From: Balanoglossus misakiensis
Lineage: Eukaryota; Animalia; Hemichordata
Assembly (NCBI GenBank): GCA_040954595.2
Contig: CM082580.2
Location: 1,726,783 to 1,790,782, forward strand
Reading direction: 5' to 3'
Length of the DNA: 64,000 bases
In this document: piece after piece, positions 9,701 through 33,720 of the stretch
Numbering within the stretch: position 1 is the first letter of the stretch
Layout of the letters: every line of letters begins with the position of its first letter
Position numbers and translations under genes: made by a program
The notes under the pieces: model-generated
The model's input: the letters and a program-made list of their open reading frames with translations, nothing else
Database searches by the model: none
Told to the model about the DNA's origin: nothing

Positions 9701-10990
9701 TTCCACTATACTCTGTAGATCGAGAGATAGTTCTAAAATTTCCATGTTTGCTTCCAAACAGCCTCGTTTATTTACGGAATTCTGTTTTGAGGCGCAGAAC
9801 ACATAGATAGGCATATGTGCATAAGAAAGTTTTCCACTATAGACTCTGTAGATCGAGAGATAGTTCTAAAATGTCCATGGTTGCTTCCAAACACAGCCTC
9901 GTTTGTTTACAAAATTCTGTTGTGATGCGCAGAACACATATATAGGCCTATGCGCATAATAACGTTTTCCACTAGACTCTGTAGATCGACGGATAGTTGT
10001 AAAATTTCCATGGTTGCTTCCAAACAGCCTCGTTTATTTACCGAATTCTGTTGTAAGGCACAGAACACATAGATAGGCCTATGTGCATAAGAAAGTTTTC
10101 CACTATAGACTCTGTAGATCGAGAGATAGTTCTAAAATGTCCATGGTTGCTTCCAAACACAGCCTCGTTTGTTTACAAAATTCTGTTGTGATGCGCAGAA
10201 CACATATATAGGCCTATGCGCATAATAACGTTTTCCACTAGACTCTGTAGATCGACGGATAGTTGTAAAATTTCCATGGTTGCTTCCAAACAGCCTCGTT
10301 TATTTACCGAATTCTGTTGTGAGGCGCAGAACACATAGATAGGCATATGTGCATAAGAAAGTTTTCCACTATAGACTCTGTAGATCGAGAGATAGTTCTA
10401 AAATGTCCATGGTTGCTACCAAACACAGCCTCGTTTGTTTACAAAATTCTGTTGTGATGCGCAGAACACATATATAGGCCTATGCGCATAAGAACGTTTC
10501 CACTAGACTCTGTAGATCGACGGATAGTTGTAAAATTTCCATGGTTGCTTCCAAACAGCCTCGTTTATTTACCGAATTATGTTGTGAGGCGCAGAACACG
10601 TGATAGGCCTATGCGCATTAGAAAGTTTTCCACTAGACTCTGTAGATCGAGAGATAGTTCTAAAATTTCCAAGGTTGCTTCCAAACACAGTCTCGTTTGT
10701 TTACAAAAGTCTGCAGTGATGCGCAGAACACATGATAGGCCTATGCGCATAAGAAACTTTTTCACTGTAGATCGACGGATAGTTCTAAAATTTCCATAGA
10801 CTCTGTAGATCGAGAGATAGTTCTAAAATTTCCATGGTTGCTTCCAAACACAGCCTCGTTTGTTTACAAAATTCTTTTGTGATGCGCAGAACACATAGCT
10901 AGGCCTATGCGCATAAGAAAGTTTTCCACTAGACTCTGTAGATCGACGGATAGTTCTAAAATGTCCATGGTTGATTTCAAACAGCCTTGT
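6779..10990. repeat. ~131-bp satellite, block 1
   Basis: Tandem monomers of 130-135 bp: aacacatagataggcctatgcgcataagaacgttttccactagactctgtagatcgacggatagttctaaaatttccatggttgcttccaaacagcctcgtttatttaccgaattctgttgtgaggcgcag. Confidence 0.97.
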
Positions 10991-12755
10991 TAGGTCCCAT
11001 TGGTATAGGCCTATATACCATGGGACCTTATGGGATGGGTTGCGTCTGTATGTATGTATGGATGGATGGATGTATGGATGTATGGATGTATGGATGTATG
11101 GATGTATGTCCGTCCACATCAAAAACTTGAAAACCGCTGCGCGTATCACCTCAATATTTGGTGTGTAGGTGCAGGCTGGGCTGTAGATGGGAGTTTGTCC
11201 AAACGAAGTTGCCAGGCCCAAAAATATGCAAATTAGCTTGTAAAATGTGAAATTGATCAAAACTCTGTAACTCAACAATTACTGGTCAGATTGCTTTGAA
11301 AATTGATATGTATGTACCTTATGTCAACCTCACACCGACCTGTAAGTGTTAAGTTGATATCATGGATGTTTTATTTTTTATGAATTTTTTAGTCTTTTTA
11401 TTAAATTTATACCTTTACTTATACCTCTATGGTTAAGCTATGTCCACGTCTTATTGTGGAATTCTGGTCTGTGCAATAGTCCTGTACAGTGACTGTCTAT
11501 TGGCCAGTGAGCACAATGGGGCCAAAATAAAAGGCAAATTTTTGGGCTCACCTGTAACACCTGCTTAACACATTAATTATGTGCATACCTAATTCCGGGC
11601 TAATTAATAGGGCTAGAGGTTTCGTTCTTGTGGGACATGGACCAGTATAGGGTCAAAATTTCTTGCCCAAATTTTGGGTGACCTCAGGTGACCTTTGACC
11701 TACTTTTCCATATCTTGGCATCCAGAGCAGGTACAGACTTGGCGTTTGGAGGATTGGCACTAAAATTGAGAAGCCAAAATTGGGGGTCACCTGTGACACC
11801 TGCATATCTCATTAATTATGTGCATACCTAATTCCAGGCTAACCAATAAGGCTATAGGTTTGGTTTTTGTTGAACATGGACCAGTATAGGGTCAAAATTT
11901 CTTGCCCAAATTTTGCATGACCTCAGGTGACCTTTGACCTACTTTTCCATATCTTGGCATCCAGAGCAGGTACAGACTTGGCGTTTGGAGGATTGGCACT
12001 AAAATTGAGAAGCCAAAATTGGGGTCACCTGTGACACCTGCATATCTCATTAATTATGTGCATACCTAATTCCAGGCTAACCAATAAGGCTATAGGTTTG
12101 GTTTTTGTTGAACATGGACCAGTATAGGGTCAAAATTTCTTGCCCAAATTTTGCATGACCTCAGGTGACCTTTGACCTACTTTTCCATATCTTGGCATCC
12201 AGAGCAGGTACAGACTTGGCGTTTGGAGGATTGGCACTAAAATTGAGAAGCCAAAATTGGGGGTCACCTGTGACACCTGCATATCTCATTAATTATGTGC
12301 ATACCTAATTCCAGGCTAACCAATAAGGCTACAGGTTTGGTTTTTGTTGAACATGGACCAGTATAGGGTCAAAATTTCTTACCCAAATTTTGCATGACCT
12401 CAGGTGACCTTTGACCTACTTTTCCATATCTTGGCATCCAGAGCAGGTACAGACTTGGCGTTTGGAGGATTGGCACTAAAATTGAGAAGCCAAAATTGGG
12501 GGTCACCTGTGACACCTGCATATCTCATTAATTATGTGCATACCTAATTCCAGGCTAACCAATAAGGCTATAGGTTTGGTTTTTGTTGAACATGGACCAG
12601 TATAGGGTCAAAATTTCTTGCCCAAATTTTGCATGACCTCAGGTGACCTTTTACCTACTTTTCCATATCTTGGCATCCAGAGCAGATATGCTTATTGCTA
12701 TGTTGCTATGTGCTATGTCCTCAAATGGGACCACAGTGTCCTTGACGCTATTTTT
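10991..12755 (+). mobile_element. Helentron-associated non-autonomous element (HINE/DINE-1-like) inserted in the satellite
   Basis: 5' hairpin aggtcccat(t)ggtata-ggcc-tatataccatgggacct at 10992-11028; (TGTA/TGGA)n microsatellite; internal 238-bp repeats; 3' subterminal IR atgggacc at 12725-12732; short hairpin agtgtc-ctt-gacgct; T-run. Inserted into a T-run of the monomer (gcct[c/t]gtt|tatttaccg) with no clear TSD. Confidence 0.8.
11546..12684. repeat. 238-239-bp tandem repeat inside the HINE (~4.8 copies)
   Basis: cacctgtgacacctgcatatctcattaattatgtgcatacc recurs near 11788, 12026, 12265 and 12504. Confidence 0.93.
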
Positions 12756-15700
12756 TATTTACCGAATTCTGCTGTGATGCGCAGATCACATAGATAGGCC
12801 TATGTGCATAAGAAACTTTTCCACTAGACTCTGTAGATCGACGGATAGTTCTAAAATTTCCATGGTTGCATCCAAACAGCCTCGTTTATTTACCGATTTC
12901 TGTTGTGAGGCGCAGAACACGTGATAGGCCTATGCGCATAAGAAAGTTTTTTACTAGACTCTGCAGATCGACGGATAGTTCTAAAATTTCCATGGTTGCT
13001 TCCAAACACAGCCTCGTTTATTTCCAAATTCTGTTGTAATGCGCAGAACACATAAATAGGCCTATGCGCATAAGAACGTTTTCCACTAGACTCTATAGAT
13101 CGACGGATAGTTCTAAAATTTCCATGGTTGCTTCCAAACACAGCCTCGTTTGTTTACAAAATTCTGCAGTGATGCGCAGAACACATGATAGGCCTATGCG
13201 CATAAGAAACTTTTTCACTGTAGATCGACGGATAGTTCTAAAATTTCCATGGTTGATTCCAAACACAACCTCGTTTGTTTACAAAATTCTGTTGTAATGC
13301 GCAGAACACATAGCTAGGCCTATGCGCATAAGAAAGTTTTCCACTAGACTCTGTAGATCGAGAGATAGTTCTAAAATATACATGGTTGCCTCAAAACACA
13401 GCCTCGTTTGTTTACAAAATTCTGTTGTGATGCGCAGAACACATAGATAGGCCTATGCGCATAAGAACGTTTTCCACTAGACCTTTTAGATCGACGGATA
13501 GTTCTAAAATTTCCATGGTTGTTTCCAAACAGCCTCGTTTATTTACCGATTTCTGTTGTGAGGCTCTGAACACATAGATAGGCCTATGCGCATAAAAAAG
13601 TTTTCCACTAGACGCTGAAGGTCGACGGATAGTTCTAAAATTTCCATGGTTGCTTCCAAACAGCCTCGTTTATTTACCGATTTCTGTTGTGAGGCGCAGA
13701 ACACATGATAGGCCCATGCGCATAAGAAATTTTTCCACTAGACTCTGTAGATCGACGGATAGTTCTAAAATGTCCATGGTTGCTTCCAAACAAAGCCTCG
13801 TTTGTTTACAAAATTCTGTTGTGATGCGCAGAACACATATATAGGCCTATGCGCATATGAACGTTTCCCACTATACTCTGTAGATCGAGAGATAGTTCTA
13901 AAATTTCCATGTTTGCTTCCAAACAGCCTCGTTTATTTACGGAATTCTGTTTTGAGGCGCAGAACACATAGATAGGCATATGTGCATAAGAAAGTTTTCC
14001 ACTATAGACTCTGTAGATCGAGAGATAGTTCTAAAATTTCCATGGTTGCTTCCAAACACAGCCTCGTTTGTTTACAAAATTCTGTTGTGATGCGCAGAAC
14101 ACATATATAGGCCTATGCGCATAAGAACGTTTTCCACTAGACTCTGTAGATCGACGGATAGCTGTAAAATTTCCATGGTTGCTTCCAAACTGCCTCGTTT
14201 ATTTACCGATTTCTGTTGTGAGGCGCAGAACACATGATAGGCCTATGCGCATAAGACATTTTTCCACTAGACTCTGTAGATCGACGGATAGTTCTAAAAT
14301 TTCCATGGTTGCTTCCAAACAGCCTCGTTTATTTACCGAATTCTGTTGTGAGGCGCAGAACACGTAATAGACCTATGCGCATTAGAAAGTTTTCCACAAG
14401 ACTCTGTAGATCGACGGATAGATGTAAAATGTCCACGGTTGCTTCCAAATACAGCCTCGTTTATTTACCGATTTCTGTTGTGATGCGCATAACACATATA
14501 TAGGCCTATGCGCAAAAGAACGTTTTCCACTAGACTCTGTAGATCGACAGATAGCTGTAAAATTTCCATGTTTGCTTCCAAACAGCCTCGTTTATTTACG
14601 GAATTCTGTTGTGAGGCGCAGAACACGTAATAGGCCTATGCGCATTAGAAAGTTTTCCACAGGACTCTGTAGATCGACGGATAGTTGTAAAATGTCCATG
14701 GTTGCTTCCAAATACAGCCTCGTTTATTTACCGATTTCTGTTGTGATGCGCATAACATATATATAGGCCTATGCGCAAAAGAACGTTTTCCACTAGACTC
14801 TGTAGATCGACGGATAGCTGTAAAATTTCCATGTTTGCTTGCAAACAGCCTTGTTTATTTACGGAATTCTGTTTTGAGGCGCAGAACACATGATAGGCCT
14901 ATGCGCATACGACATTTTTCCACTAGACTCTGTAGATCGACGGATAGTTGTAAAATTTCCATGGTTGCTTCCAAACAACCTCGTTTGTTTACCGAATTCT
15001 GTTGTGATGCGCAGAACACATATATAGGCCTATGCGCATAAGAACGTTTTCCACTAGACTCTGTAGATCGACGGATAGTTGTAAAATGTTCATGGTTGCT
15101 TCCAAATACAGCCTCGTTTATTTACCGATTTCTGTTGTGATGCGCATAACACATAGATAGGCCTATGCGCATTATAACGTTTTCCACTAGACTCTGTAGA
15201 TCGACGGATAGTTGTAAAATTTCCATGGTTGCTTCCAAACAGCCTCGTTTATTTACCGAATTCTGTTGTTAGGCGCAGAACACGTTATAGGCCTATGCGC
15301 ATAAGAAAGTTTTCCACCAGACTCTGTAGATCGACGGATTTTTGTAAAATTTCCATGGTTGCTTCCAAACAGCCTCGTTTATTTACCGAATTCTGTTGTT
15401 AGGCGCAGAACACGTTATAGGCCTATGCGCATAAGAAAGTTTTCCACCAGACTCTGTAGATGGACTGATAGTTCTAAAATTTCCATGGTTGCTTCCAAAC
15501 AGCCTCGTTTATTTACCGAATTCTGTTGTGAGGCGCAGAACACATAGATAGGCATATGTGCATAAGAAAGTTTTCCACTATAGACTCTGTAGATCGAGAG
15601 ATAGTTCTAAAATGTCCATGGTTGCTACCAAACACAGCCTCGTTTGTTTACAAAATTCTGTTGTGATGCGCAGAACACATAGATAGGCCTATGCGCATAT

Positions 15701-17477
15701 GAACGTTTTCCACCATACACTGTAGATCGAGAGATAGTTCTAAAACTTCCATGTTTGCTTCCAAACAGCCTCGTTTATTTGCGGAATTCTGTTTTGAGGC
15801 GCAGAACACATAGATAGGCATATGTGAATAAGAAAGTTTTCCACTATAGACTCTGTAGATCGAGAGATAGTTGTAAAATTTCCATGGTTGCTTCCAAACA
15901 GCCTCGTTTATTTACCGATTTCTGTTGTGAGGCGCAGAACACATAGATAGGCCTATGCGCATAAAAAACTTTTCAACTTTAGATCAACGGATAGTTCTAA
16001 AATTTCCATGGTTGTTTCCAAACAGCCTCGTTTATTTACCGAATTCTGTTGTGATGCGTAGAACACATACATATGCCTATGCGCATAAGAAAGTTTTCCA
16101 CTAGACTCCGTAGATCGACGAATAGTTCTAAAATGTCCATGGTTGCTTCCAAACAAAGCCTGGTTTGTTTACAAAATTCTGTTGTGATGCGCAGAACACA
16201 TAGATAGGCCTATGCGCATATGAACGTTTTCCACTATACTCTGTAGATCGAGAGATAGTTCTAAAATTTCCATGTTTGCTTCCAAACAGCCTCGTTTATT
16301 TACGGAATTCTGTTTTGAGGCGCAGAACACATAGATAGGCATATGTGCATAAGAAAGTTTTCCACTATAGACTCTGTAGATCGAGAGATAGTTCTAAAAT
16401 GTCCATGGTTGCTTCCAAACACAGCCTCGTTTGTTTACAAAATTCTGTTGTGATGCGCAGAACACATATATAGGCCTATGCGCATAATAACGTTTTCCAC
16501 TAGACTCTGTAGATCGACGGATAGTTGTAAAATTTCCATGGTTGCTTCCAAACAGCCTCGTTTATTTACCGAATTCTGTTGTAAGGCACAGAACACATAG
16601 ATAGGCCTATGTGCATAAGAAAGTTTTCCACTATAGACTCTGTAGATCGAGAGATAGTTCTAAAATGTCCATGGTTGCTTCCAAACACAGCCTCGTTTGT
16701 TTACAAAATTCTGTTGTGATGCGCATAACACATAGATAGGCCTATGCGCATAATAACGTTTTCCACTAGACTCTGTAGATCGACGGATAGTTGTAAAATT
16801 TCCATGGTTGCTTCCAAACAGCCTCGTTTATTTATCGATTTCTGTTGTGAGGCGCAGAACACATGATATGCCTATGCGCATAAGACATTTTTCCACCAGA
16901 CTCTGTAGATCGACGGATAGTTGTAAAATTTCCATGATTGCTTCCAAACAGCCTCGTTTATTTACCGATTTCTGTTGTGATGCGCATAACACATAGATAG
17001 GCCTATGCGCATAAGAACGTTTTCCACTAGACTCTGTAGATCGACGGATAGTTCTAAAATTTCCATGGTTGCTTCCAAACAGCCTCGTTTATTTACCGAT
17101 TTCTGTTGTGAGGCGCAGAACACATGATAGGCCTATGTGCATAATAAAGTTTTCCACTAGACTGTGTAGATCGAGAGATAGTTCTAAAATTTCCATGGTT
17201 GCTTCCAAACACAGCCTCGTTTATTTACCGATTTCTGCTGTGATGCGCATAACACATAGATAGGCCTATGCGCATAAGAAAGTTTTCCACTAGACTCTGT
17301 AGATCGACGGATAGTTCTAAAATGTCCATGGTTGCTTCCAAACAAAGCCTCGTTTGTTTACAAAATTCTGTTGTGATGTGCATAACACATGATAGGGATA
17401 TGTGCATAAGAAAGTTTTCCACTATAGACTCTGTAGATCGAGAGATAGTTCTAAAATTTCCATGGTTGCTTCCAAAC
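12756..17477. repeat. ~131-bp satellite, block 2
   Basis: The same monomer resumes in register after the HINE and stops at ...gcttccaaac. Confidence 0.97.
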
Positions 17478-17769
17478 CTATAATATTTAAAGCCTCATAA
17501 CTCCGCTGTAGAATATGCCTATTGTTATAGGAGTGGGTCCGGGTTTTATGTTATGTTATGCGAAACTCCCTGCTTTATGGATGAACAACTTTTCCTATTT
17601 CCCACCCAATCCTTCAATACCCATACACACCCACTCCTACACCCATAATATATATGAAAGCACGTGTCAATTTTAAAATATGAACTTTATTCTTGGTACG
17701 ATTATGTACAGAAATCAAGCCCCATACATCTGTAAATTAGGTTATTGTGCCATTAAGGAGCGGACTGGT

Positions 17770-19025
17770 TTAGAATGCCATAGTGAAGTCTGTTAGATCA
17801 TTCGCCTGTTCGTAGTTTCGCGTCAGGATCTCTCCTGCATCAGTCACCTCTTTTAACTTCTGGGCTGGTCCTTGGGCCGCTGACACAGAAGATAGTTTGG
17901 TGTAATGATTGGCTGTATCTTCTGAACGCCAACCTATGTGACGCATAAGCTCACTCAACAACACCCCCGCCAAGGATAATGTGATCGCACATGCGCTTCT
18001 GAGACTGTGTGGTGTTTCCCCTCTATCCATGTTTAGCTCCTGTAGGTACAATTTGAGGCGACTGTACGCTGTTTGGGATGATAGAGGGCGTTGCTCGACT
18101 TCACCGCTCGGGGTTGTTGGCCGAAATAGATTACCTCTGCACAAGTTTACCCCAATCCTTTCCGCCAATGTGATGTATTGTTCTACAGCGTGTACTGGGC
18201 AAATATCCACATCTTTACATCGTTTAAGGGCAAACATATTTGAAGATGCGCCTCTCAAAGTTTTTCCATAGGTGTGATTGAAAATGAAGCCGCAGTTGTC
18301 TGGAAAACGTAGAATTTCTTGTGTTTTTACATGCCCCAGATCACCCGCCCTGTCGCCGGAAAATGCAAGTAGTTTAAAGAACGCTAAATCCCTGGCCAGT
18401 ATGTAAATTTGGGCGAGCGATCTTGCTACGTCTACCTTACTTAATACGTGGTTGAATATACGTTTCATTTTTTCTAGAAACAGTGGTTTAGCTTGTCTAG
18501 GGGTAATATGTGCTCTGGCTTGTTCTTCCGATATTTTTTTACGTACCTAAGTACCATCGTGGATTTTGCCGGGTTTGCATTATTCGACACTGAGTTGAAA
18601 CAGACGCCGAGTTTTGAAACCATGTTTTTTATTGTACTTGATTTCAGTCGTCTGGGGCAATGACACGGCATTGTGCCTGTCCTTCCATAAAAGTCACAAG
18701 TATCAACGTGTATTTGCGTTTTAGCGTCTTTATCCTTGTATATTAGGAATCTGACGACATCCTCAGGTTTTGCCGTTATGAAATTGGTAGTTGGTGATGT
18801 AGCGGCTAGAAACTGCTCGAACTGCTGTATGAGTCTGTCCTGTATTTCGTATAGTGATCTTTGACCGAGAACCTCATGCATGCGTCGGTTTATAGCCTGG
18901 ATATCCGGCGGACTACCCTTCTTGTGACCCGTGTGTGGGGTTGTGAGAGAGACTAGGGTAGTAGAACATACATCACATTCAGTATTGGTGGTCTTGCTTG
19001 TAGTGCCACATATATAGCATATCAT
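17770..19025 (-). CDS. Tyrosine recombinase with N-terminal Zn-ribbon and ALOG-like domain; split by a 1-bp loss in an A7 run at 18534-18540
   Basis: Catalytic-type motifs GDRAGDL, GKT, HSLR, HIGWRSEDTANHY. N-terminal CxxC...CxxC, then KTQIHxxxCxFYG...CxCPRRL...NPA. Adding one A joins the two ORFs as YVKKISEEQARAHITPRQAKPLFLEKMKR. Confidence 0.9.
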
Positions 19026-19140
19026 CTGCTGGGAGACAAAGGAAATACTATTGTAGTTTAGATGCGATATTGAGCCTAATATTGTCACATATGGATGCCA
19101 TTGTGTCGAAATGTATTTGTACATTATAATTACTGGGAAT

Positions 19141-21320
19141 TTAAGTGCTGGGTTTGAAAATCACTGCATATATTCGCAGCGAAGTAGAAATTCATTGTAA
19201 CCATTTCGCGATGGCGCTTGAATGACCCCTTCTTCTCCCTTTTTACCAATTAGATTCGTGTGTGTTGCTTTTTGACGTATCAGTGGCCAGAACGGCTCCA
19301 AGAAGCGCCCTCTTGGGACTATGACTGTGGCTGTATACCGTTTATCTACGATGTGTCGGAGGACCGCATGCACCAATGGAAATGGCGGGTAGATATATAA
19401 GGTTTCCTGCCTAGAAAATGTGTGCTGGAAAAAGTTGACACCTTCACTTCTGGTTTGCTGAAATGGGGAGACGAACCGTGTTAGTTTTGCATTTGAGCTG
19501 TTTGCCATTGCATCAACGTGGTGTGGGCCAAATTTCTCTTCCAGTAATTGCCACGCACGTGGAGACAGACTTGAATTCTTTAGTGAGATATCGCGAGATG
19601 CTCCATCAGCTTCGTTTTCTGCGGATCTGACATGTATTAGCTTCAGTGTGACGTTGTTGTCCACGCAAAAACGGAATATTTTCCTGATAATTTCGTTGAG
19701 GGCGTTCGATTTGGTGCCTGGGACTCCATTTGACCATACCTGGACCAGTGTCATAGAATCCACGTGTACATCGAGCCGCGTGCTCTTAACAGATCCCTGG
19801 AATGCGATCAGTGCTCGAGACAGTGCTTCCGCCTCCTTCAGGACGATTGGGTTTTGTCTCCATACTGTCTCCCACATATCACTGACAGTGGTATCCGTGG
19901 CTTCTGTGTCCGATCTATGTAATACAGCACCCCATTTGTAAGAACTGGCGTCTGTAGACATGGTTACCCGGACATGGTTTTCAGTTGGCCAACGGAATGT
20001 CCTTGGGGTTGTGACCACTTGTACCCACTCTTGCAATTCTTCTCTGAGTGGGCCTTTGATTGGCACCATGTACTTTGCCTGTTTATTGGCGGCAGCAATT
20101 GAGTGTGCCATCTGACGGATATATAGACGAGCACACGGGATAGCAAGGGAGAACGAGACACACTTTCCCATGATCCTTTGTAGGGATGATAATGGAGCGA
20201 TACGACCGTCCAATACTTGGTTAACTAGCGTTATAAAAGTATGCCTCTTCTCGTCGGGTATTGAGAATGCGTTGGCTACTGTGTCGACGGTCATACCCAG
20301 CATAATTAGAGACTGTGTTGGTCTGAGGACGCTCTTATCTAAAGATATAAAATATCCCGCATCTATACATAACTTGATTAATATATAGGCCGCAGCTTCA
20401 GTGAGTTGGTACCTGGTCCATTCGTTGTCGGTAGTTGCTTGTGGTAAGCATAGTGCGCCCACATGTCTGTCGTCGATGTACTGTATACATGGTACGCCAA
20501 GAGACCTCGCATAGCTGGTAATACAGTATCCCACGTTCTGGTATATGAAGGCGGATAATTTCCATCCAAACGGTAGAGTGTTGTTCACATACCAGGATCC
20601 CGCCCACTGGAAACCAACGTAACGTCTTTCGTCCTCTGCCAGTAGGATGTGATCGTATCCGCTCTTGTCATCGCATTTTATTTGATAATCACACGATTGC
20701 AGATATTTTGAAACTTCTATCAGCTTATCCAATTTAAAAGGCATGTCCTTCATCCAAAGGTTGAGAAATCTCATATCGATACATAGACGAGGCTTTTGGG
20801 GTTCAATTGTGATGGGCATAACTATATGAGGGGGAGGGGCACACCCTACTCTGCCCCACACCGAAATGGCTCCAGACTTGATTCTATCTTGCAGGGTATG
20901 AGCAATAAATTCTCCGAATTTACTACAATTCGGGTTGTTGTAAAATAACTTGTGAGGGGGTGTATCGTGATCGTATTCGACTCCTTTAAATTGTCCCGAA
21001 AAGTGACGAGTGTAATCCGAGATTTTGACCTTCTCCCGCAACCAGGACATAACTAAGTCTTTGTTGTCTAGCCCATTTGTGATGCAATCCCATTCTTGAA
21101 GATGTTGATGGACTTCACCAGCCTTAAATTCAGCTGCATTTCTATAATTTAACTCTTGGGGGCGGGACAGGGTTCTTCCTAAGGCGACCTCTTCGACAGC
21201 TGGATTCCCTCCCATCACTTCCTGTCTGGGGGCGCCCTCCCATGATACCCATGAATACGAGACACGTCCACCACTTGCTTGATGAACGGGGTAGTTCAGT
21301 TCCCACTGTGGGGTCAAAAA
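19141..21320 (-). CDS. Pol: reverse transcriptase + RNase H + Dam-like adenine methyltransferase domain
   Basis: RT: KPRLCIDMRFLN, DDKSGYDHI, LPFGW, YIDD. RNase H: TDAS...KEAEAL...VDS...NEADGASR. MTase: VDAMA...N...YIYPPF. The track ORF ends at 19161; a 1-bp shift near 19172 would extend it to ...CELYAVIFKPST* (19141). Confidence 0.93.
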
Positions 21321-21356
21321 CTGAAACAAAAGGAAAACAGCAAAGCTTAGGACACT

Positions 21357-21388
<32 letters not shown>

Positions 21389-21599
21389 GACCCCCCAGAC
21401 AGGACCCTGCGAAGGCAGGTTGCTTTTAAAGGGATAGGGCTGTTATTGTTAGCCCCCCTGTCCGAAGGGAAAGGAAAATAAACTACACAAACACTGAGAT
21501 TACAGAGTCATATTATTTATTTTATTTTATTTATTTATTTTTTTTTTGCAATATTTCAATGCATCATCGGAAAAGTTATACGATTATCAGTACAATACA

Positions 21600-22130
21600 T
21601 TATTTTTTGTCGGGGCAGTCCCTCGCAATGTGCCCCAACTTCGCACATACAAAGCATTTAATTCCGGATTGCCCAGCCGAATTTCTTGGTTGCTCTCTTC
21701 TATAGTAGGGAGAATACGGTGTGCGGGTATATGATGTACGAAGTGGATAGGGCATATATCGTCGCGATTCATATTGAGAGAACTGATTAGATGAGCCAGA
21801 GTGTTTCATAAACTTGTACACTTTTGAAGCTATTTCTTCCTCTTCTTTATTTCCCAATAATAGAATAATTAATCTCCCCGCATCTTCCTCGAAATCGGTA
21901 GATTCAAACTGGGAGAGCACCGCTCGAAAACGCTGCAATTTTGGATGTGCGGTGGCTGTCGCTCTGTCGACCAGTGCCCTCAAAGCATTAAGTAGTTGGG
22001 TTCGGGATACGACTGCTGGATTGTGGGCCATATCCATTAGCTTTTGTAAAGCCTCTTCGACAGATGCTGTCCCAGCATTCTTTTCCAATAAGAGTAGTTT
22101 CTGTTTCAGCTCCAATAGCTGTTCCTTCAC
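21600..22130 (-). CDS. Gag-like protein, exon 2 (coiled coil + CCHC zinc knuckle)
   Basis: C-terminal CFVCAKLGHIARDC. No in-frame ATG at the 5' end; the ORF starts exactly after tttgtattgtAG (22132-22131). Confidence 0.85.
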   Translation of the reverse strand: MKEQLLELKQKLLLLEKNAGTASVEEALQKLMDMAHNPAVVSRTQLLNALRALVDRATATAHPKLQRFRAVLSQFESTDFEEDAGRLIILLLGNKEEEEIASKVYKFMKHSGSSNQFSQYESRRYMPYPLRTSYTRTPYSPYYRREQPRNSAGQSGIKCFVCAKLGHIARDCPDKK

Positions 22131-22357
22131 CTACAATACAAACACCGTTTTGTAATGAGTACATCACAGTAACACTAACGCCCATGTACAAAGGTTAACA
22201 TTATTTTGAATCAATTCTCCTTCCTTTCAGAGCCTCGTACCTTCATTTCATTATGAGCCTCATTGCTTCATTATTGTTATTTTGTATACAAATACATTTT
22301 TTTAAAACAATCTCGTTGCTAGGTTTCATAATCAAAGCCTCGCTGCTTTAAATTCAT

Positions 22358-25056
22358 AACCGAGCTTCACTGCTCTATTTCAATATCCGAGCTTCACTGC
22401 TCTAATTCAATAACCGAGCTTCACTGCTCTATTTCAATAACCGAGCTCCACTGCTCTATTTCAATAACCGAGCTTCACTGCTCTATTTCAATAACCGAGC
22501 TCCACTGCTCTAATTCAATAACCGAGCTTCACTGCTCTATTTCAATAACCGAGCTCCACTGCTCTATTTCAATAACCGAGCTTCACTGCTCTATTTCAAT
22601 AACCGAGCTTCACTGCTCTATTTCAATAACCGAGCTCCACTGCTCTATTTCAATAACCGAGCTTCACTGCTCTATTTCAATAACCGAGCTTCACTGCTCT
22701 ATTTCAATAACCGAGCTCCACTGCTCTATTTCAATAACCGAGCTCCACTGCTCTATTTCAATAACCGAGCTCCACTGCTCTAATTCAATAACCGAGCTTC
22801 ACTGCTCTATTTCAATAACCGAGCTCCACTGCTCTATTTCAATAACCGAGCTTCACTGCTCTATTTCAATAACCGAGCTCCACTGCTCTAATTCAATAAC
22901 CGAGCTTCACTGCTCTATTTCAATAACCGAGCTCCACTGCTCTAATTCAATAACCGAGCTTCACTGCTCTATTTCAATAACCGAGCTCCACTGCTCTATT
23001 TCAATAACCGAGCTTCACTGCTCTATTTCAATAACCGAGCCCCACTGCTCTAATTCAATAACCGAGCTTCACTGCTCTATTTCAATAACCGAGCTCCACT
23101 GCTCTATTTCAATAACCGAGCTTCACTGCTCTATTTCAATAACCGAGCTTCACTGCTCTATTTCAATAACCGAGCTCCACTGCTCTAATTCAATAACCGA
23201 GCTCCACAGCTCTAATTGAATAACCGAGCTTCACTGCTCTATTTCAATAACCGAGCTCCACTGCTCTATTTCAATAACCGAGCTTCACTGCTCTATTTCA
23301 ATAACCGAGCTCCACTGCTCTAATTCAATAACCGAGCTTCACTGCTCTATTTCAATAACCGAGCTCCACTGCTCTAATTCAATAACCGAGCTTCACTGCT
23401 CTATTTCAATAACCGAGCTCCACTGCTCTAATTCAATAACCGAGCTTCACTGCTCTATTTCAATAACCGAGCTCCACTGCTCTATTTCAATAACCGAGCT
23501 TCACTGCTCTATTTCAATAACCGAGCTCCACTGCTCTAATTCAATAACCGAGCTTCACTGCTCTATTTCAATAACCGAGCTCCACTGCTCTATTTCAATA
23601 ACCGAGTTTCACTGCTCTATTTCAATAACCGAGCTCCACTGCTCTAATTCAATAACCGAGCTTCACTGCTCTATTTCAATAACCGAGCTCCACTGCTCTA
23701 ATTCAATAACCGAGCTTCACTGCTCTATTTCAATAACCGAGCTCCACTGCTCTAATTCAATAACCGAGCTTCACTGCTCTATTTCAATAACCGAGCTCCA
23801 CTGCTCTAATTCAATAACCGAGCTTCACTGCTCTATTTCAATAACCGAGCTCCACTGCTCTATTTCAATAACCGAGCTTCACTGCTCTAATTCAATAACC
23901 GAGCTTCACTGCTCTATTTCAATAACCGAGCTCCACTGCTCTATTTCAATAACCGAGCTCCACTGCTCTATTTCAATAACCGAGCTCCACTGCTCTAATT
24001 CAATAACCGAGCTCCACTGCTCTATTTCAATAACCGAGCTCCACTGCTCTAATTCAATAACCGAGCTTCACTGCTCTATTTCAATAACCGAGCTTCACTG
24101 CTCTATTTCAATAACCGAGCTCCACTGCTCTAATTCAATAACCGAGCTTCACTGCTCTATTTCAATAACCGAGCTCCACTGCTCTATTTCAATAACCGAG
24201 CTTCACTGCTCTATTTCAATAACCGAGCTCCACTGCTCTATTTCAATAACCGAGCTTCACTGCTCTATTTCAATAACCGAGCTCCACTGCTCTAATTCAA
24301 TAACCGAGCTCCACTGCTCTATTTCAATAACCGAGCTTCACTGCTCTATTTCAATAACCGAGCTCCACGGCTCTATTTCAATAACCGAGCTTCACTGCTC
24401 TATTTCAATAACCGAGCTCCACTGCTCTAATTCAATAACCGAGCTTCACTGCTCTATTTCAATAACCGAGCTCCACTGCTCTAATTCAATAACCGAGCTT
24501 CACTGCTCTATTTCAATAACCGAGCTTCACTGCTCTATTTCAATAACCAAGCTCCACTGCTCTATTTCAATAACCGAGCTCCACTGCTCTATTTCAATAA
24601 CCGTGCTTCACTGCTCTATTTCAATAACCGAGCTCCACTGCTCTAATTCAATAACCGAGCTTCACTGCTCTATTTCAATAACCGAGCTCCACGGCTCTAA
24701 TTCAATAACCGAGCTCCACTGCTCTATTTCAATAACCGAGCTTCACTGCTCTATTTCAATAACCAAGCTCCACTGCTCTAATTCAATAACCGAGCTTCAC
24801 TGCTCTATTTCAATAACCGAGCTCCACTGCTCTATTTCAATAACCGAGCTTCACTGCTCTATTTCAATAACCGAGCTCCACTGCTCTAATTCAATAACCG
24901 AGCTTCACTGCTCTATTTCAATAACCGAGCTCCACTGCTCTATCTCAATAACCGAGCTTCACTGCTCTATTTCGATAACCGAGCTTCACTGCTCTATTTC
25001 AATAACCGAGCTTCACTGCTCTATTTCAATAACCGAGCCCCAATGCTCTATTTCAT
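22358..25056. repeat. 27-bp minisatellite (ccgagctYcactgctctaWttcaataa), ~100 copies, inside the retroelement
   Basis: Read directly; highly homogeneous with two main dimorphic positions; degenerate units at both edges. Confidence 0.98.
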
Positions 25057-25327
25057 AAAACTGGGCCGCATTGTTCTATCGAAAATGTACAGGCACCTGG
25101 CAGTGGGGCCATGTCACGGTTTTCCACTCCATGCATATTCAATGAGGATACAAACATTCACATTGGGGGCAGGTGGCATGCAGGAATTCAACAGGTGTAC
25201 GCTGTAGTATAATGGGCGTCGAGAAAACCCGTTAACAAAGTAATGGGGCATGCCGAATGAAACGTACAAATCTAGACATCGGAATGAACAATAAATAAGG
25301 TGTACACGAGAAAGGATTTATATGTAC

Positions 25328-25576
25328 CTCATTATCTGCGGTCGTTTGAGCGTTCCCTTGACGACTCGGACCCGGAACTTGAATATCTGGTCGGCTCGTC
25401 GCCCTTTGCTGAGTTTGCTGAGTTGGCTGAGATTGGGAGCCGGCATTACTACTTTGGCTGGTAGAAGGCCTGTGTGCAGCTAGGAACGCTGCAACAGCTT
25501 GGGTTGCACTCGGCTGTGCCTCTTCTGTGCCCGGTGGTGGTGGTGGCGGGCTTACCCGTACAGGTGGTTGAGCCAT
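25328..25576 (-). CDS. Predicted leader exon of the retroelement (83 aa, Pro/Gln/Ser-rich)
   Basis: ATG at 25576, 147 bp inside the element end. Low-complexity MAQPPVRVSPPPPPPG...TTADNE ends at GAG|GTACAT (phase 0), after which the composition turns intron-like. Confidence 0.65.
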
Positions 25577-25723
25577 CTTCTCTGCTATATGCTGCCTCCG
25601 TGGTTAAGGAATGGTACTGAGCCCATGTGCGGATATTCGCTGACTTTTGTACGGGTTCTCATGAATATTCATAATAAATTAGCATATGCGGATATATATC
25701 GCGTAGTGATGCGGCTTTAAATA

Positions 25724-28700
25724 ACTGCCTCGTTTGTTTACAAAATTCTGTTGTGACGCGCAGAACACATAGATAGGCCTATGCGCATAAGAACGTTTTC
25801 CACTAGACTCTGTAGATCGACGGATAGTTGTAAAATTTCCATGGTTGCTTCCAAACACAGCCTCGTTTATATACCGAATTCTGTTGTGATGCGCAGAACA
25901 CATAGATAGGCCTATGCGCATATGAACGTTTTCTACTAGACTCTGTAGATCGAGAGATAGTTCTAAAATTTCCATGTTTGCTTCCAAACAGCCTCGTTTA
26001 TTTACGGAATTCTGTTTTGAGGCGCAGAACACATAGATAGGCATATGTGCATAAGAAAGTTTTCCACTATAGACTCTGTAGATCGACGGATAGTTCTAAA
26101 ATTTCCATGGTTGCTTCCAAACACAGCCTCGTTTGTTTACAAAATTCTGTTGTGATGCGCAGAACACATATATAGGCCTATGCGCATAAGAACGTTTTCC
26201 ACTAGACTCTGTAGATCGACGGGTAGTTGTAAAATTTCCATGGTTGCTTCCAAACAGCCTCGTTTATTTACCGATTTCTGTTGTGAGGCGCAGAACACAT
26301 GATAGGCCTATGCGCATAAGACATTTTTCCACTAGACTCTGTAGATCGACGGATAGTTCTAAAATTTCCATGGTTGCTTCCAAACAGCCTCATTTATTTA
26401 CCGAATTCTGTTGTGAGGCACAGAACACGTAATAGGCCTATGCGCATAAGAAAGTTTTCCACCAGACTCTGTAGATCGACGGATAGTTGTAAAATTTCCA
26501 TGGTTGCTTCCAAATACAGCCTCGTTTATTTACCGATTTCTGTTGTGATGCGCATAACACATAAATAGGCCTATGCGCATAAGAACGTTTTCCACTAGAC
26601 TCTGTAGATCGACGGATAGTTCTAAAATTTCCATGGTTGCTTCCAAACAGCCTCGTTTATTTACCGAATTCTGTTGTGAGGCGCAAAACACGTAATAGGC
26701 CTATGCGCATAAGAAACTTTTCAACTTTAGATCGACGGATAGTTCTAAAATTTCCATGGTTGCTTCAAAACAGTCTCGTGTATTTACAGAATTCTGTTGG
26801 GAGGCACAGAACACATAGATAGTCCTAAGTGCATAATAAAGTTTTACACTAGACTCTGTAGATCGAGAGATAGTTCTAAAATTTCCATGGTTGCTTCCAA
26901 ACACAGCCTCGTTTGTTTACAAAATTCTGTTGTGATGCGCAGAACACATATATAGGCCTGTGCGCATAAGAACGTTTTCCACGAGACTCTGTAGATCGAC
27001 GGGCAGTTGTAAAATTTCCATGGTTGCTTCCAAACAGCCTCGTTTATTTACCGATTTCTGTTGTGAGGCGCAGAACACATGATAGGCCTATGCGCATAAG
27101 AAAGTTTTCCACCAGACTCTGTAGATCGACGGATAGTTCTAAAATTTCCATGGTTGCTTCCAAACAGCCTCGTTTATTTACCGAATTCTGTTGTGAGGCG
27201 CAAAACACGTAATAGGCCTATGCGCATAAGAAACTTTTCAACTTTAGATCGACGGATAGTTCTAAAATTTCCATGGTTGCTTCAAAACAGTCTCGTGTAT
27301 TTACAGAATTCTGTTGGGAGGCACAGAACACATAGATAGTCCTAAGTGCATAATAAAGTTTTACACTAGACTCTGTAGATCGAGAGATAGTTCTAAAATT
27401 TCCATGGTTGCTTCCAAACACAGCCTCGTTTGTTTACAAAATTCTGTTGTGATGCGCAGAACACATATATAGGCCTATGCGCATAAGAACGTTTTCCACT
27501 AGACTCTGTAGATCGACGGGCAGTTGTAAAATGTCCATGGTTGCTTCCAAACAGCCTCGTTTATTTACCGATTTCTGTTGTGAGGCGCAGAACACATGAT
27601 AGGCCTATACGCATAAGAAATTTTTCAACTAGACTCTGTAGATCGACGGATAGTTGTAAAATTTCCATGGTTGCTTCCAAACAGCCTCGTTTATTTACCG
27701 AATTATGTTGTGAGGCGCAGAACACGTAATAGGCCTATGCGCATAAGAACGTTTTCCACTAGACTCTGTAGATCGACGGATAGTTCTAAAATTTCCATGG
27801 TTGCTTCCAAACAGCCTCGTTTATTTACCGAATTCTGTTGTGAGGCGCAAAACACGTAATAGGCCTATGCGCATAAGAAACTTTTCAACTTTAGATCGAC
27901 GGATAGTTCTAAAATTTCCATGGTTGCTCCAAAACAGTCTCGTGTATTTACGGAATTCTGTTGGGAGGCACAGAACACATAGATAGTCCTAAGTGCATAA
28001 TAAAGTTTTACACTAGACTCTGTAGATCGAGAGATAGTTCTAAAATTTCCATGGTTGCTTCCAAACACAGCCTCGTTTGTTTACAAAATTCTGTTGTGAT
28101 GCGCAGAACACATATATAGGCCTATGCGCATAAGAACGTTTTCCACTAGACTCTGTAGATCGACGGGCAGTTGTAAAATGTCCATGGTTGCTTCCAAACA
28201 GCCTCGTTTATTTACCGATTTCTGTTGTGAGGCGCAGAACACATGATAGGCCTATACGCATAAGAAATTTTTCAACTAGACTCTGTAGATCGACGGATAG
28301 TTGTAAAATTTCCATGGTTGCTTCCAAACAGCCTCGTTTATTTACCGAATTATGTTGTGAGGCGCAGAACACGTAATAGGCCTATGCGCATAAGAACGTT
28401 TTCCACTAGACTCTGTAGATCGACGGATAGTTCTAAAATTTCCATGGTTGCTTCCAAACAGCCTCGTTTATTTACCGAATTCTGTTGTGAGGCGCAAAAC
28501 ACGTAATAGGCCTATGCGCATAAGAAACTTTTCAACTTTAGATCGACGGATAGTTCTAAAATTTCCATGGTTGCTCCAAAACAGTCTCGTGTATTTACGG
28601 AATTCTGTTGGGAGGCACAGAACACATAGATAGTCCTAAGTGCTTAATAAAGTTTTACACTAGACTCTGTAGATCGAGAGATAGTTCTAAAATTTCCATG

Positions 28701-31700
28701 GTTCTTTCCAAACACAGCCTCGTTTGTTTACAAAATTCTGTTATGATGCGCTGAACACATACATATGCCTATGCGCATATGAAAGTTTCCCACTAGACTC
28801 TGTAGATCGAGAGATAGTTCTAAAATTTCCATGTTTGCTTCCAAACAGCCTCGTTTATTTACGGAATTCTGTTTTGAGGCGCAGAACACATAGATAGGCA
28901 TATGTGCATAAGAAAGTTTTCCACTATAGACTCTGTAGATCGAGAGATAGTTCTAAAATTTCCATGGTTCTTTCCAAACACAGCCTCGTTCATCTACAAA
29001 ATTCAGTTGTGATGCGCTGAACACATACATATGCCTATGCGCATAAGAAAGTTTCCCACTAGACTCTGTAGATCGACGGATAGTTCTAAAATTTCCATGA
29101 TTGCTTCCAAACACATCCCCGATTGTTTACAAAATTCTGTTGTGATGCGCAGAACACATAGATAGGCCTATGCGCATAAGAACGTTTTCCACTAGACTCT
29201 GTAGATCGAGAGATAGTTCTAAAATTTCCATGGTTGCTTCCAAACACATCCTCGTTTGTTTACAAAATTCTGTTGTGATGCGCAGAACACATAGATAGGC
29301 CTATGCGCATTGGAAAGTTTTCCACTAGACTCCGTAGATCGACGGATAGTTCTAAAATTTCCATGGTTGCTTCCAAACAGCCTCGTTTATTTACCGAATT
29401 CTGTTGTTAGGCGCAGAACACATAATAGGCCTATGCGCATAAGAAAGTTTTCCACCAGACTCTGTAGATCGACGGATAGTTGCAAAATTCCCATGGTTGT
29501 TTCCAAACAGCCTCGTTTATTTACCGAATTCTGTTGTGATGCGTAGAACACATACATATGCCTTTTGCGCATAAGAATTTTTCCACTAGACTTCGTAGAT
29601 GGACGGATAGTTCTAAAATTTCCATGGTTGCTTCCAAACAAAGCCTCGTTTGTTTACAAAATTCTATTGTGATGCGCAGAACACATAGAGAGGCCTATGC
29701 GCATAAGAACGTTTTCCACTAGACTATGTATATCGACGGATAGTTCTAAAATTTCCATGTTTGCTTCCAAACACATCCTCGTTAGTTTACAAAATTCTGT
29801 TGTGATGCGCAGAACACATAGATAGGCCTATGCGCATTGGAAAATTTTCCACTAGACTCCGTAGATCGACGGATAGTTCTAAAATTTCCATGGTTGCTTC
29901 CAAACACATCCTCGTTTGTTTACAAAATTCTGCTGTGATGCGCAGAACACATAGATAGGCCTATGCGCATATGAACGTTTTCCACTATACTCTGTAGATC
30001 GACGGATAGTTGTAAAATTTCCATGGTTGCTTCCAAACAGCCTCGTTTATTTACGGAATTCTGTTTTGAGGCGCAGAACACATAGATAGGCATCTGTGCA
30101 TAAGAAAGTTTTCCACTATAGACTCTGTAGATCGAGAGATAGTTCTAAAATTTCCATGGTTGCTTCCAAACACAGCCTCGTTTGTTTACAGAATTCTGTT
30201 GTGATGCGCAGAACACATATATAGGCCTATGCGCATAAGAACGTTTTCCACTAGACTCTGTAGATCGACGGATAGTTGTAAAATTTCCATGGTTGCTTCC
30301 AAACAGCCTCGTTTATTTACAGATTTCTGTTGTGAGGCGCAGAACACATGATAGGCCTATGCGCATAAGACATGTTTCCACTAGACTCTGTAGATCGACG
30401 GATAGTTCTAAAATTTCCATGGTTGCTTCCAAACAGCCTCGTTTATTTACCGAATTCTGTTGTTAGGCGCAGAACACGTAATAGGCCTATGCGCATAAGA
30501 AAGTTTACCACCAGACTCTGTAGATCGACGGATAGTTCTAAAATTTCCATGGTTGTTTCCAAACAGCCTCGTTTATTTACCGAATTCTGTTGTGATGCGT
30601 AGAACACATACATATGCCTATGCGCATAAGAATTTTTTCCACTAGACTCCGTAGATCGACGGATAGTTCTAAAATTTCCATGGTTGCTTCCAAACAAAGC
30701 GTCGTTTGTTTACAAAATTCTGTTGTGATGCGCAGAACACATAGAGAGGCCTATGCGCATAAGAACGTTTTCCACTAGACTATGTATATCGACGGATAGT
30801 TCTAAAATTTCCATGTTTGCTTCCAAACACATCCTCGTTTGTTTACAAAATTCTGTTGTGATGCGCAGAACACATAGATAGGCCTATGCGCATTGGAAAA
30901 TTTTCCACTAGACTCCGTAGATCGACGGATAGTTCTAAAATTTCCATGGTTGCTTCCAAACACATCCTCGTTTGTTTACAAAATTCTGCTGTGATGCGCA
31001 GAACACATAGATAGGCCTATGCGCATATGAACGTTTTCCACTATACTCTGTAGATCGACGGATAGTTGTAAAATTTCCATGGTTGCTTCCAAACAGCCTC
31101 GTTTATTTACGGAATTCTGTTTTGAGGCGCAGAACACATAGATAGGCATCTGTGCATAAGAAAGTTTTCCACTATAGACTCTGTAGATCGAGAGATAGTT
31201 CTAAAATTTCCATGGTTGCTTCCAAACACAGCCTCGTTTGTTTACAGAATTCTGTTGTGATGCGCAGAACACATATATAGGCCTAAACGCATAAGAACGT
31301 TTTCCACTAGACTCTGTAGATCGACGGATAGTTGTAAAATTTCCATGGTTGCTTCCAAACAGCCTCGTTTATTTACAGATTTCTGTTGTGAGGCGCAGAA
31401 CACATGATAGGCCTATGCGCATAAGACATTTTTCCACTAGACTCTGTAGATCGACGGATAGTTCTAAAATTTCCATGGTTGCTTCCAAACAGCCTCGTTT
31501 ATTTACCGAATTCTGTTGTTAGGCGCAGAACACGTAATAGGCCTATGCGCATAAGAAAGTTTTCCACCAGTCTCTGTAGATCGACGGATAGTTCTAAAAT
31601 TTCCATGGTTGTTTCCAAACAGCCTCGTTTATTTACCGAATTCTGTTGTGATGCGTAGAACACATACATATGCCTATGCGCATAAGAATTTTTTCCACTA

Positions 31701-33720
31701 GACTCCGTAGATCGACGGATAGTTCTAAAATTTCCATGGTTGCTTCCAAACAAAGCGTCGTTTGTTTACAAAATTCTGTTGTGATGCGCAGAACACATAG
31801 AGAGGCCTATGCGCATAAGAACGTTTTCCACTAGACTCTGTATATCGACGGATAGTTGTAAAATTTCCATGTTTGCTTCCAAACAGCCTCGTTTATTTAC
31901 GGAATTCTGTTTTGAGGCGCAGAACACATAGATAGGCATCTGTGCATAAGCAAGTTTTCCACTAGACTCTATAGATCGAGAGATAGTTCTAAAATTTCCA
32001 TGGTTGCTTCCAAACACAGCCTCGTTTGTTTACAAAATTCTGTTGTGATGCGCAGAACACATATATAGGCCTATGCGCATAACAACGTTTTCCACTAGAC
32101 TCTGTAGATCGACGTATAGTTGTAAAATTTCCATGGTTGCTTCCAAACAGCCTCGTTTATTTACCGATTTCTGTTGTGAGGCGCAGAACACATGATAGGC
32201 CTATGCGCATAAGACATTTTTCCACTAGACTCTGTAGATCGACGGATAGTTCTAAAATTTCCATGGTTGCTTCCAAACAGCCTCGTTTATTTACCGAATT
32301 CTGTTGTTAGGCGCAGAACACGTAATAGGCCTATGCGCATAAGAAAGTTTTCCACCAGACTCTGTAGATCGACGGATAGTTCTAAAATTTCCATGGTTGC
32401 TTCCAAACAGCCTCGTTTATTTACCGAATTCTGTTGTGAGGCGCAGAACACGTAATAGGCCTATGCGCATAAGAAAGTTTTCCACCAGACTCTGTAGATC
32501 GACGGATAGTTCTAAAATTTCCATGGTTGTTTCCAAACAGCCTCGTTTATTTACCGAATTCTGTTGTGATGCGTAGAACACATACATATGCCTATGCGCA
32601 TAAGAATTTTTTCCACTAGACTCCGTAGATCGACGGATAGTTCTAAAATTTCCATGGTTGCTTCCAAACAAAGCCTCGTTTGTTTACAAAATTCTGTTGT
32701 GATGCGCAGAACACATAGAGAGGCCTATGCGCATAAGAACGTTTTCCACTAGACTCTGTATATCGACGGATAGTTGTAAAATTTCCATGGTTGCTTCCAA
32801 ACACATCCTCGTTTGTTTACAAAATTCTGTTGTGATGCGCAGAACACATAGATAGGCCTATGCGCATTGGAAAGTTTTCCACTAGACTCCGTAGATCGAC
32901 GGATAGTTCTAAAATTTCCATGGTTGCTTCCAAACACATCCTCGTTTGTTTACAAAATTCTGTTGTGATGCGCAGAACACATAGATAGGCCTATGTGCAT
33001 AAGAAAGTTTTCCACAAGACTCTGTAGATCGCGAGATAGTTCTAAAATTTCCATGATTGCTTCCAGACACAGCCTCGTTTGTTTACAAAATTACGTTGTG
33101 AAGCGCAGAACACATAGATAGGCCTATGCGCATAAGAACGTTTTCCACTAGACTCTGTAGATCGACGGATAGTTCTAAAATTTCCATGGTTGCTTCGAAA
33201 CAAAGCCTTGTTTGTTTACAAAATTCTGTTGTGAAGCGCAGAACACATAGATAGGCCTATGCGCATAAGAACGTTTTCCACTTGACTTTGTAGATCGACG
33301 GATAGTTCTAAAATTTCCATGGTTGCTTCGAAACAAAGCCTTGTTTGTTTACAAAATTATGTTGTGATGTACAGAACACATGATAGGCCAATGCGCATAA
33401 GAAACTTTTCCACTGTAGATGGACGGATACTTCTAAAATGTCCATGGTTGCTTCCAAACAGCCTCGTTTATTTACCGAATTCTGTTGTGATGCGTAGAAC
33501 ACATAGATAAGCCTATGCGCATAAGAAAGTTTTCCACTAGACTCTTTAGATCGACAGATAGTTCTAAAATTCCCATGGTTGCTTCCAAACACTACCTCGT
33601 TTGTTTACCGAATTCTGTTGTGATGCGCAGAACACATAGATAGGCCTATGTGCATAAGAAAGTTTTCCACTAGCCTCTGTAGATCGACGGATAGTTCTAA
33701 AATTTCCGTGGTTGCTTCCA
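25724..33720. repeat. ~131-bp satellite, block 3
   Basis: The monomer resumes in register after the retroelement and ends at gttgcttcca. Confidence 0.97.

Follow-up and report, generated by a model that had tools for sequence, protein, structure and literature searches.

An ALOG-domain tyrosine recombinase retrotransposon in a satellite of Balanoglossus misakiensis, whose ends probably represent the two halves of a palindromic repeat junction

An insertion of 8.2 kb (17478–25723) within a 133-bp satellite was analyzed in a 64-kb window of Balanoglossus misakiensis, the window being the whole stretch of 64,000 nucleotides taken from contig CM082580.2. Judged by its sequence, the insertion is a DIRS-order retrotransposon with a tyrosine recombinase and an ALOG domain, and belongs to the ALOG class of Iyer and Aravind (PMC3537659); here and below, comparisons with published systems refer to the excerpted text of the papers cited. 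The element is oriented on the minus strand. A and B denote the repeats at its 5′ and 3′ ends, respectively, and X1 and X2 are two DNA runs from the same organism that contain the element. The features of the element and of its flanks are the following, given as positions in the window.

12754–17477, no strand: 133-bp satellite array bordering the element on its 3′ side; the junction was read
17478–17483, minus: 6-bp spacer of the B/A junction (CTATAA), element-encoded and left at the 3′ end; present in the joined junctions of X1 and X2
17478–17557, minus: B repeat including the spacer, about 80 bp; its inner limit is suggested by a contig break in X1 only
17484–17506, plus: left arm of the inverted repeat (end of B), by direct comparison of the ends
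17770–18546, minus: tyrosine recombinase catalytic domain (PF00589, E 3.7e-11), with motifs GDR, HSLR, HIGW and HY
18474–19160, minus: ALOG DNA-binding domain (PF04852, E 1.7e-18)
19161–21425, minus: reverse transcriptase (RT; PF00078, E 1.9e-7), RNase H (E 0.0016) and methylase-like (MT; Dam, E 0.018) domains, the last two below the Pfam cut-off
21600–22130, minus: gag-like open reading frame (ORF) with a CCHC zinc knuckle (PF00098, E 4.8e-6)
22356–25055, no strand: 27-bp tandem array of 100 units in the 5′ region, with stops in all three sense frames
25232–25603, minus: upstream ORF that matches no Pfam family and may be a first gag exon
25600–25723, minus: A1 repeat, 124 bp, the 5′ end of the element; an X1 record of 204 nt covers it and then enters B
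25701–25723, plus: right arm of the inverted repeat (start of A), by direct comparison of the ends
25724–33720, no strand: 133-bp satellite array bordering the element on its 5′ side; record 8 of X2 holds the junction

The ALOG domain precedes the catalytic domain of the recombinase, as in ALOG-type elements of the DIRS order, and in the window copy the two lie in adjacent ORFs in different frames, reflecting a frame break. A Gag zinc knuckle, RT-RNase H and a methylase-like domain are located upstream, as in ALOG-type retroposons, with the RNase H and Dam matches being weak ones. The Dam match follows RNase H; an MT domain is a feature of PAT-like elements and is lacking in Ngaro and VIPER. 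Among the matches listed, the nearest named recombinase is that of Ptychodera flava, with 56% identity. The published ALOG-domain DIRS1-type retroposons (PMC3537659) are alike in all of these domains, in an extra 5′ ORF and in having marine invertebrate relatives. In the excerpted description, the Ectocarpus element has terminal direct repeats of 159 bp, and split repeats, a palindromic junction and the ends of animal copies are not among the features given.

The ends of the element form a short inverted repeat. Of the 23 positions in the segment 17484–17506, 20 agree with the reverse complement of 25701–25723, including all of the outer 11, and the 11-mer of the arm occurs exactly once per strand in the window. 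Among 200,000 random pairs drawn from non-satellite DNA of the window, with 13 offsets allowed, a perfect 11-bp inverted match was obtained 21 times and a 20/23 match 24 times, so that such ends arise by chance in about 1 of 10,000 cases. Outside the left arm, at 17478–17483, lie the six additional bases CTATAA, of which there are 0 occurrences on the plus strand of the flanking satellite (12,721 bp, two arrays). A preliminary description of this sequence had noted both the inverted repeat and the absence of the six bases from the satellite target, and both observations hold. It had also recognized no DIRS-type architecture. For the window copy this stands: no long inverted terminal repeat (ITR), internal complementary region (ICR) or split repeat was found inside it by self-BLAST with the 27-bp array masked or by a repeat search; for the family, by contrast, split repeats are indicated, and in relatives they are seen. 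Words resembling the arm at 22329 and 22344 were considered as an ICR and rejected, being a decayed unit of the 27-bp array.

The satellite register is kept across the insertion, the 133-bp units resuming in phase on both sides, as expected from the earlier proposal that the satellite was split without target site duplication. The remainder of that proposal is less certain. The right satellite flank has the rare variant ACTGCC. The only other window unit with this variant, at 14183, is of the short form and would imply a 2-bp duplication of AC, and the long-form ACTGCC unit required for zero duplication was not found in the window. A duplication of 0 bp is the simplest reading and one of 2 bp fits the sole matching satellite variant; the two are indistinguishable here. 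There is no sign of a special dif-like target, since 6 of 11 bases of the satellite site agree with the arm, a score shared with 13 other of 286 positions. In X2, approximately 70–80% of the depth of the outer 5′ ends abuts one satellite position with an identical rare variant base (25724–25738), reflecting either repeated targeting of the satellite or one insertion amplified together with it. The regions 6781–10797, 11544–12685 and 59436–62291 comprise another block of the 130–133-bp satellite and, at two places far apart, a tandem family of 216–239 bp.

Contigs of the DNA runs display the continuation of other copies at these ends. X1, X2 and a third run, X3, in which next to none of the element was found, represent one sample, possibly the window's own source; the contigs are graph paths, and their depths are means that give no copy number. 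Among the runs listed, no RNA run contained the element, which has no bearing on its expression. The high-depth contigs run through CTATAA onward into the other end of the element, not into satellite. The 204-nt record of X1 (depth 394) corresponds to 25600–25723 joined to 17478–17557, and a 326-nt record of X2 (depth 946) to 25694–25723 joined to 17478–17773. As both runs carry the joined arm-CTATAA-arm site at about the depth of the element, the site, proposed earlier by joining the two ends, is real DNA, and its spacer is constant within the family. This answers the question previously raised of whether the spacer is constant or variable; a sister family, differing at 6 of 40 letters, has matching inner arms and another 6-bp spacer, ACTTAA.

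Two paths leave the 124-bp A segment of X1 at 25600, one into the gene body (depth 209) and the other into 172 other letters (depth 147). A 202-nt X1 record would give a B1–B2 period of approximately 346 bp, within the 258–393 bp of 13 of 14 relatives. Two X1 records overlap at 17528–17557, from which the inner limit of B was taken, and the B repeats of relatives measure 64–94 bp. In X2, the k-mer depth of the outer 5′ end is 900, most body contigs lying between 786 and 1088; beyond this end the path divides, one branch entering the satellite (721) and the other a second flank (257). Split direct repeats, in the layout A1-genes-B1-A2-C-B2 with a region C between A2 and B2, predict a single body, a single outer 5′ end and a single joined site for each element. 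A rough depth model places the A2-C-B2 tail in 0.7–1.1 of copies, the X1 depth leaving room for up to approximately 30% without a tail. Most copies appear to continue beyond the left end into a second 5′ repeat, and the previous claim that the ends replace split direct repeats is therefore contradicted at the level of the family. The deeper contigs differ from the window copy by small indels near the ALOG/catalytic frame break and at about 20 of 2,832 letters. As the depth values average over whole contigs, and B2 was not itself among the sequences read, we infer the architecture in this organism from these proportions.

In relatives the layout was read directly. With the Ptychodera flava recombinase 170 relatives were found, those from corals, molluscs, amphioxus and metagenomes being among the 120 listed. 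An alignment of 40 ALOG recombinases then recovered 287 relatives in 600 pattern matches in metagenome contigs, of which 80 were kept; none was found in viral contigs. The repeat search covered 69 loci with at least 200 bp after the recombinase gene, and the 19 relatives used for ends are 35–49% identical in the recombinase. Direct-repeat pairs B1 and B2 (64–130 bp) follow the gene in 14 of the 69 loci, with a spacing of 258–393 bp in 13 and of 79 bp in one. In L024 and L028 the segment after B1 recurs at the 5′ end, constituting the A1 and A2 repeats, and in L024 all parts of the A1-genes-B1-A2-C-B2 layout are present. The palindrome at which B repeats end has the core ATA-N6-TAT, and its TAT is where A repeats start. 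Split repeats together with an MT domain define PAT-like elements (PMC3266345, PMC6681497, PMC9210276), and PAT-like families are reported in Nematostella, Lottia and Saccoglossus (same sources), hosts that also carry ALOG elements. The likeness to PAT-like elements in layout and MT domain is thus direct in relatives and strongly indicated for the family of the window copy, which itself lacks the layout. The suggestion that the terminal structure is distinct from the textbook classes of tyrosine recombinase retroelements is not sustained. As a point of difference, the excerpted descriptions of PAT-like elements give a region C of approximately 60–250 bp between A2 and B2 and mention no junction palindrome; five PAT-like families are described in Ectocarpus, with no mention of ALOG in the excerpted text (PMC12477816). 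ALOG elements were also observed nested in one another: a complete tail in the recombinase gene of another (L072:1660-2064), a 3′ end in the B repeat of another family (L043:6567-6626), where A2-C has shrunk to about 15 bp in L043, and a 5′ end located 237 bp past a recombinase gene (L029:8893-9084).

The palindrome at the junction was compared across families. Junctions were assigned in 40 of the 80 loci; after near-duplicates, outer ends and one wrong assignment (L004 +318) had been dropped, 24 remained, giving 25 with the window, while a set of 21 non-identical junctions leaves out L003, L016, L024 and the window. In the 21-junction set, 79.6% of cells are paired in the 14-pair stem compared with 62.1% in shuffled junctions (0 of 500 shuffles as high), double-sided changes number 70 compared with 28 in shuffles, and slid registers yield only 35–46% pairing. 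The inner pairs are nearly invariant (T-A in 21/21, A-T in 20/21), the outer pairs covary, and the 6-bp register is kept across all 21 families. Among the 25 junctions, 6.4 of 10 outer positions pair when both arms come from one family, compared with 3.3 across families (0 of 10,000 permutations). The junction is the most stable hairpin of approximately 190–280 nearby windows in 13 of 16 repeat-defined loci, and within the top 7% in the other three. The fixed 11-bp arms proposed earlier are accordingly only part of the pattern: register and palindrome are kept in relatives, but arm length varies, with imperfect and in some cases bulged stems of up to about 25 bp, and the perfect 11 bp of the window are the best of the 25. 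No published description of a palindromic junction in ALOG or PAT-like elements was found, and one may be in print in the papers of Goodwin and Poulter, in Repbase entries or in the supplement of PMC3537659; the covarying ATA-N6-TAT palindrome with its mapped crossover appears to be a detail absent from the literature found.

The position of the crossover was obtained from the ends of relatives, the counts leaving out L003 (circular path), L009 (short) and L022 (flank identical to that of L063). In 13 of 13 B2 ends, five or all six of the spacer bases agree with the internal spacer of the family. At six 5′ ends, the number of ends in which the base before A agrees with the spacer is 0, 1, 1, 2, 0 and 6 of 6 from the first spacer position to the last, so that only the last base, C, is shared. 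Beyond the 3′ end, agreement of the flanks with the A arm is 19, 19, 21 and 15 of 24 in positions 1–4 and fades thereafter, family-specific likeness past position 4 being slight (3.4 compared with 2.7 of 10). The TAT that opens A follows the 3′ end exactly in 14 of 24 ends; the remaining ends deviate from it at one or two bases. On the 5′ side, the flanks bear no resemblance to the B arm, matching at just 0–3 of 6. Together, these observations locate the crossover within 1 bp of the spacer/A border, with the spacer always passing to the 3′ end and the target resembling one arm only. Such a crossover excludes the shared 6-bp overlap of dif (PMC5357621) and of Cryptons (PMC3212892), as well as a coupling sequence of the Tn916 type. 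The description of the ends as dif/att-like therefore holds for the inverted arms around 6 bp, whose register is kept across families, but not for a shared overlap. Crypton DNA transposons (PMC3212892) are alike in a eukaryotic tyrosine recombinase, a 6-bp terminal feature and a proposed circle; they differ from this element in having an identical 4–6 bp at both ends and no RT.

Taken together, the genes, the inverted arms, the joined junction in contigs, the split repeats of relatives, the covarying palindrome and the mapped crossover, all directly observed, favor the following reading, which we consider likely: an ALOG-domain retrotransposon whose ends are the halves of its family's B/A junction, in a family of split-repeat type, with the tail lost in this copy and the palindrome bound and cut by the recombinase. 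The split-repeat architecture A1-genes-B1-6 bp-A2-C-B2 is its firmest part and can be assigned to the family with good confidence. The window copy has likely lost a tail of about 350 bp; it is most simply A1-genes-B without the tail, since relatives carry tails and the predicted period of about 346 bp falls in their range. Loss of repeat parts is known from Ngaro (PMC9210276, PMC8547959). For the palindrome as the predicted recombinase site, the chances appear evenly balanced. Several points weigh against this reading. Neither B2 nor a complete tail was read in this organism, where the 172 loose letters are visible only in part; the contig break at 17557 is present in X1 but not in X2; the runs are one sample, perhaps the window's own source, with depths averaged over contigs; and no contig bridging the left junction of the window copy (17477/17478) is among the matches listed. 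In 55 of the 69 loci no B1–B2 pair was found, many ending too early, and 11 ends in other loci join a single B straight to flank, which short-read collapse could also produce. The base before the A arm is T in both flanks of this organism, where the last base of the spacer is G, unlike the 6/6 match in relatives, so that the one-base match does not hold everywhere. Because junctions were first assigned through a palindrome search, the pairing statistics are biased upward. Finally, bulges or a shifted register occur in approximately 6 of 25 stems, isolated mismatches on the sense strand are more often G.T than A.C (9 compared with 2, p 0.065), and folding is better for the sense strand in 19/25 junctions as RNA and in 22/25 as DNA, which points to a fold of the single sense strand and not to a fixed double-stranded site or an antisense fold.

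A mechanism for the favored reading can be proposed. In keeping with the standard split-repeat model, the ends would be restored through reverse transcription of the internal B1/A2 junction, and the spacer would be constant within a family for this reason. Strand exchange by the recombinase would then take place at the spacer/A border, a loose likeness to the A arm, (C)TATY, being all that is required of the target, and would leave the 6 bp of the element at the 3′ end and no target duplication. Tyrosine recombinases form a 3′-phosphotyrosine on the arm side, so that a spacer/A cut by the arm-bound monomer would fall on the antisense strand. Exchange of the antisense strand alone, followed by replication, would give exactly the product observed. 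The simplest dif-like geometry would thus involve a single antisense exchange completed by replication or repair, as for CTXphi and VGJphi; the XerCD dif, CTXphi and VGJphi systems (PMC5357621, PMC3442271) share the inverted arms around 6 bp, and their one-strand exchange plus replication would give the polarity seen. In contrast, dif requires two matching sites, whereas the target of this element is similar to a single arm and agrees with the spacer at no more than one base. DIRS-1 cDNA is single-stranded (PMC7192593), which would suit a one-strand exchange. The tail of the window copy may have been lost by recombination between the two B repeats of about 80 bp; free A-C-B mini-cassettes, the reciprocal product if the recombinase removes the tail, were absent from the 80 loci, and recombination between B1 and B2 is preferred only by default.

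The strongest competing explanation, with perhaps one chance in three by our judgment, keeps the same split-repeat layout and regards the palindrome as a hairpin of RNA or single-stranded DNA that would serve reverse transcription in priming, template switching or end ligation, integration following the short-motif rule of DIRS elements with (C)TAT loosely matched. By the published rule, exchange takes place across a short motif of the junction that is also present in the target (PMC3266345, PMC7192593); with TAT as the motif it gives the same sequences as the one-strand model, the products being identical, and the sequence fits both one-sided exchange and the 3-bp junction rule plus hairpin. 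The loose TAT matches have a counterpart in the comparable trinucleotide matches of DIRS1-like ends (PMC3266345, Table 3), and the bulged stems and the folding bias of the sense strand agree with a hairpin as well. On the other hand, a hairpin alone need not fix the length or sequence of its loop, whereas here the spacing of 6 nt and the inner TA/AT pairs hardly vary while the outer pairs covary, and the crossover falls exactly at the edge of the arm. DIRS1-like elements (PMC3266345) are also alike in a short motif at both ends and no target duplication, and the 23-bp imperfect inverted repeat with 6 extra 3′ bases may be compared to a miniature "divergent ITR" (9–36 bp) with right extension. 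They differ in possessing long ITRs (66–316 bp) and an ICR, whereas the window copy has only the 23-bp inverted repeat and no inverted ICR, and in its family the junction template would be a direct internal copy.

It is improbable that the window copy owes its short form to a collapse of B1 and B2 in the assembly and is no real allele. In L022 a single B runs into the very flank found after B2 in L063, as collapse would produce, and the unbridged left junction is compatible with it; against this, the window resolves the 2.7-kb array of 27-bp units and long satellite arrays unit by unit, suggesting long reads to which an 80-bp repeat would be no obstacle, and the X1 depth permits the tail-less copies mentioned above. 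Somewhat more improbable still is a family without split repeats in this genome, in which head-to-tail tandems or free circles supply the joined junction and the second path from A is a short non-autonomous partner. Tandem copies would yield an identical 204-nt record, contigs being graph paths, the second path reaches only 57–70% of body depth in X1, and the window copy has no internal junction; yet the outer 5′ ends, junction record and body of X2 are of about equal depth and not in the 1:1:2 ratio of dimers, and relatives have true B1-A2-C-B2 tails of the predicted size in single contigs. The original proposal of a new terminal class without split repeats, with a double-stranded circle integrating and excising by two-strand exchange across 6 bp or by a Tn916-type coupling sequence, is very improbable despite the 11-6-11 geometry of dif (PMC5357621) and the joined site in contigs, since split repeats exist in the clade, a shared overlap needs an identical 6 bp at both ends (0 of 6 5′ ends comply), and a coupling sequence of the Tn916 kind would leave target bases at about half of 3′ ends, compared with 0 of 13 B2 ends (1 in 8,192 if random). 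As the target resembles one arm only, the integrated ends cannot be shown to rebuild a target site.

Additional features were observed in the 5′ and central regions of the element. Among 18 relatives with 2 kb or more of upstream sequence, 12 (L004, L007, L017, L018, L024, L028, L029, L043, L045, L050, L051 and L074) have a tandem array, mostly non-coding, upstream of RT, compared with 1 of 12 downstream control regions. The units differ from family to family, and the array, at 22356–25055 in the window, looks like a family trait of the 5′ region. Splice-like donors and acceptors on the minus strand at 21321, 22131 (by eye), 22240, 25327 and 25555 flank the array and precede the gag and pol ORFs, so that gag and pol may come from spliced RNA and the array may be intronic. 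Between gag and pol are two T-rich tracts, A-rich on the element strand (21356–21382 and 21520–21548), and near them a 13-bp perfect inverted repeat (21220–21232 / 21392–21404).

The ends of the element do not constitute a new class. A family of regulators of plant development descends from the ALOG domain, and the present results tie ALOG elements to the split-repeat, PAT-like layout. How recombinases of the DIRS order choose and cut DNA was stated to be untested as of 2020 (PMC7192593), and the short covarying palindrome with its mapped crossover represents a concrete substrate for assays of binding and cleavage. It is conceivable, if doubtful, that ATA-N6-TAT is the long-missing substrate of DIRS-order recombinases, the ALOG recombinase binding the arms and exchanging, at the spacer/A border, one strand only (antisense first-strand cDNA) with a one-armed target before host replication completes the process, as for CTXphi at dif. 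If so, a stem plus short extension would also underlie the ITR junctions of DIRS1, and the ITR and split-repeat classes would share one recombination site.

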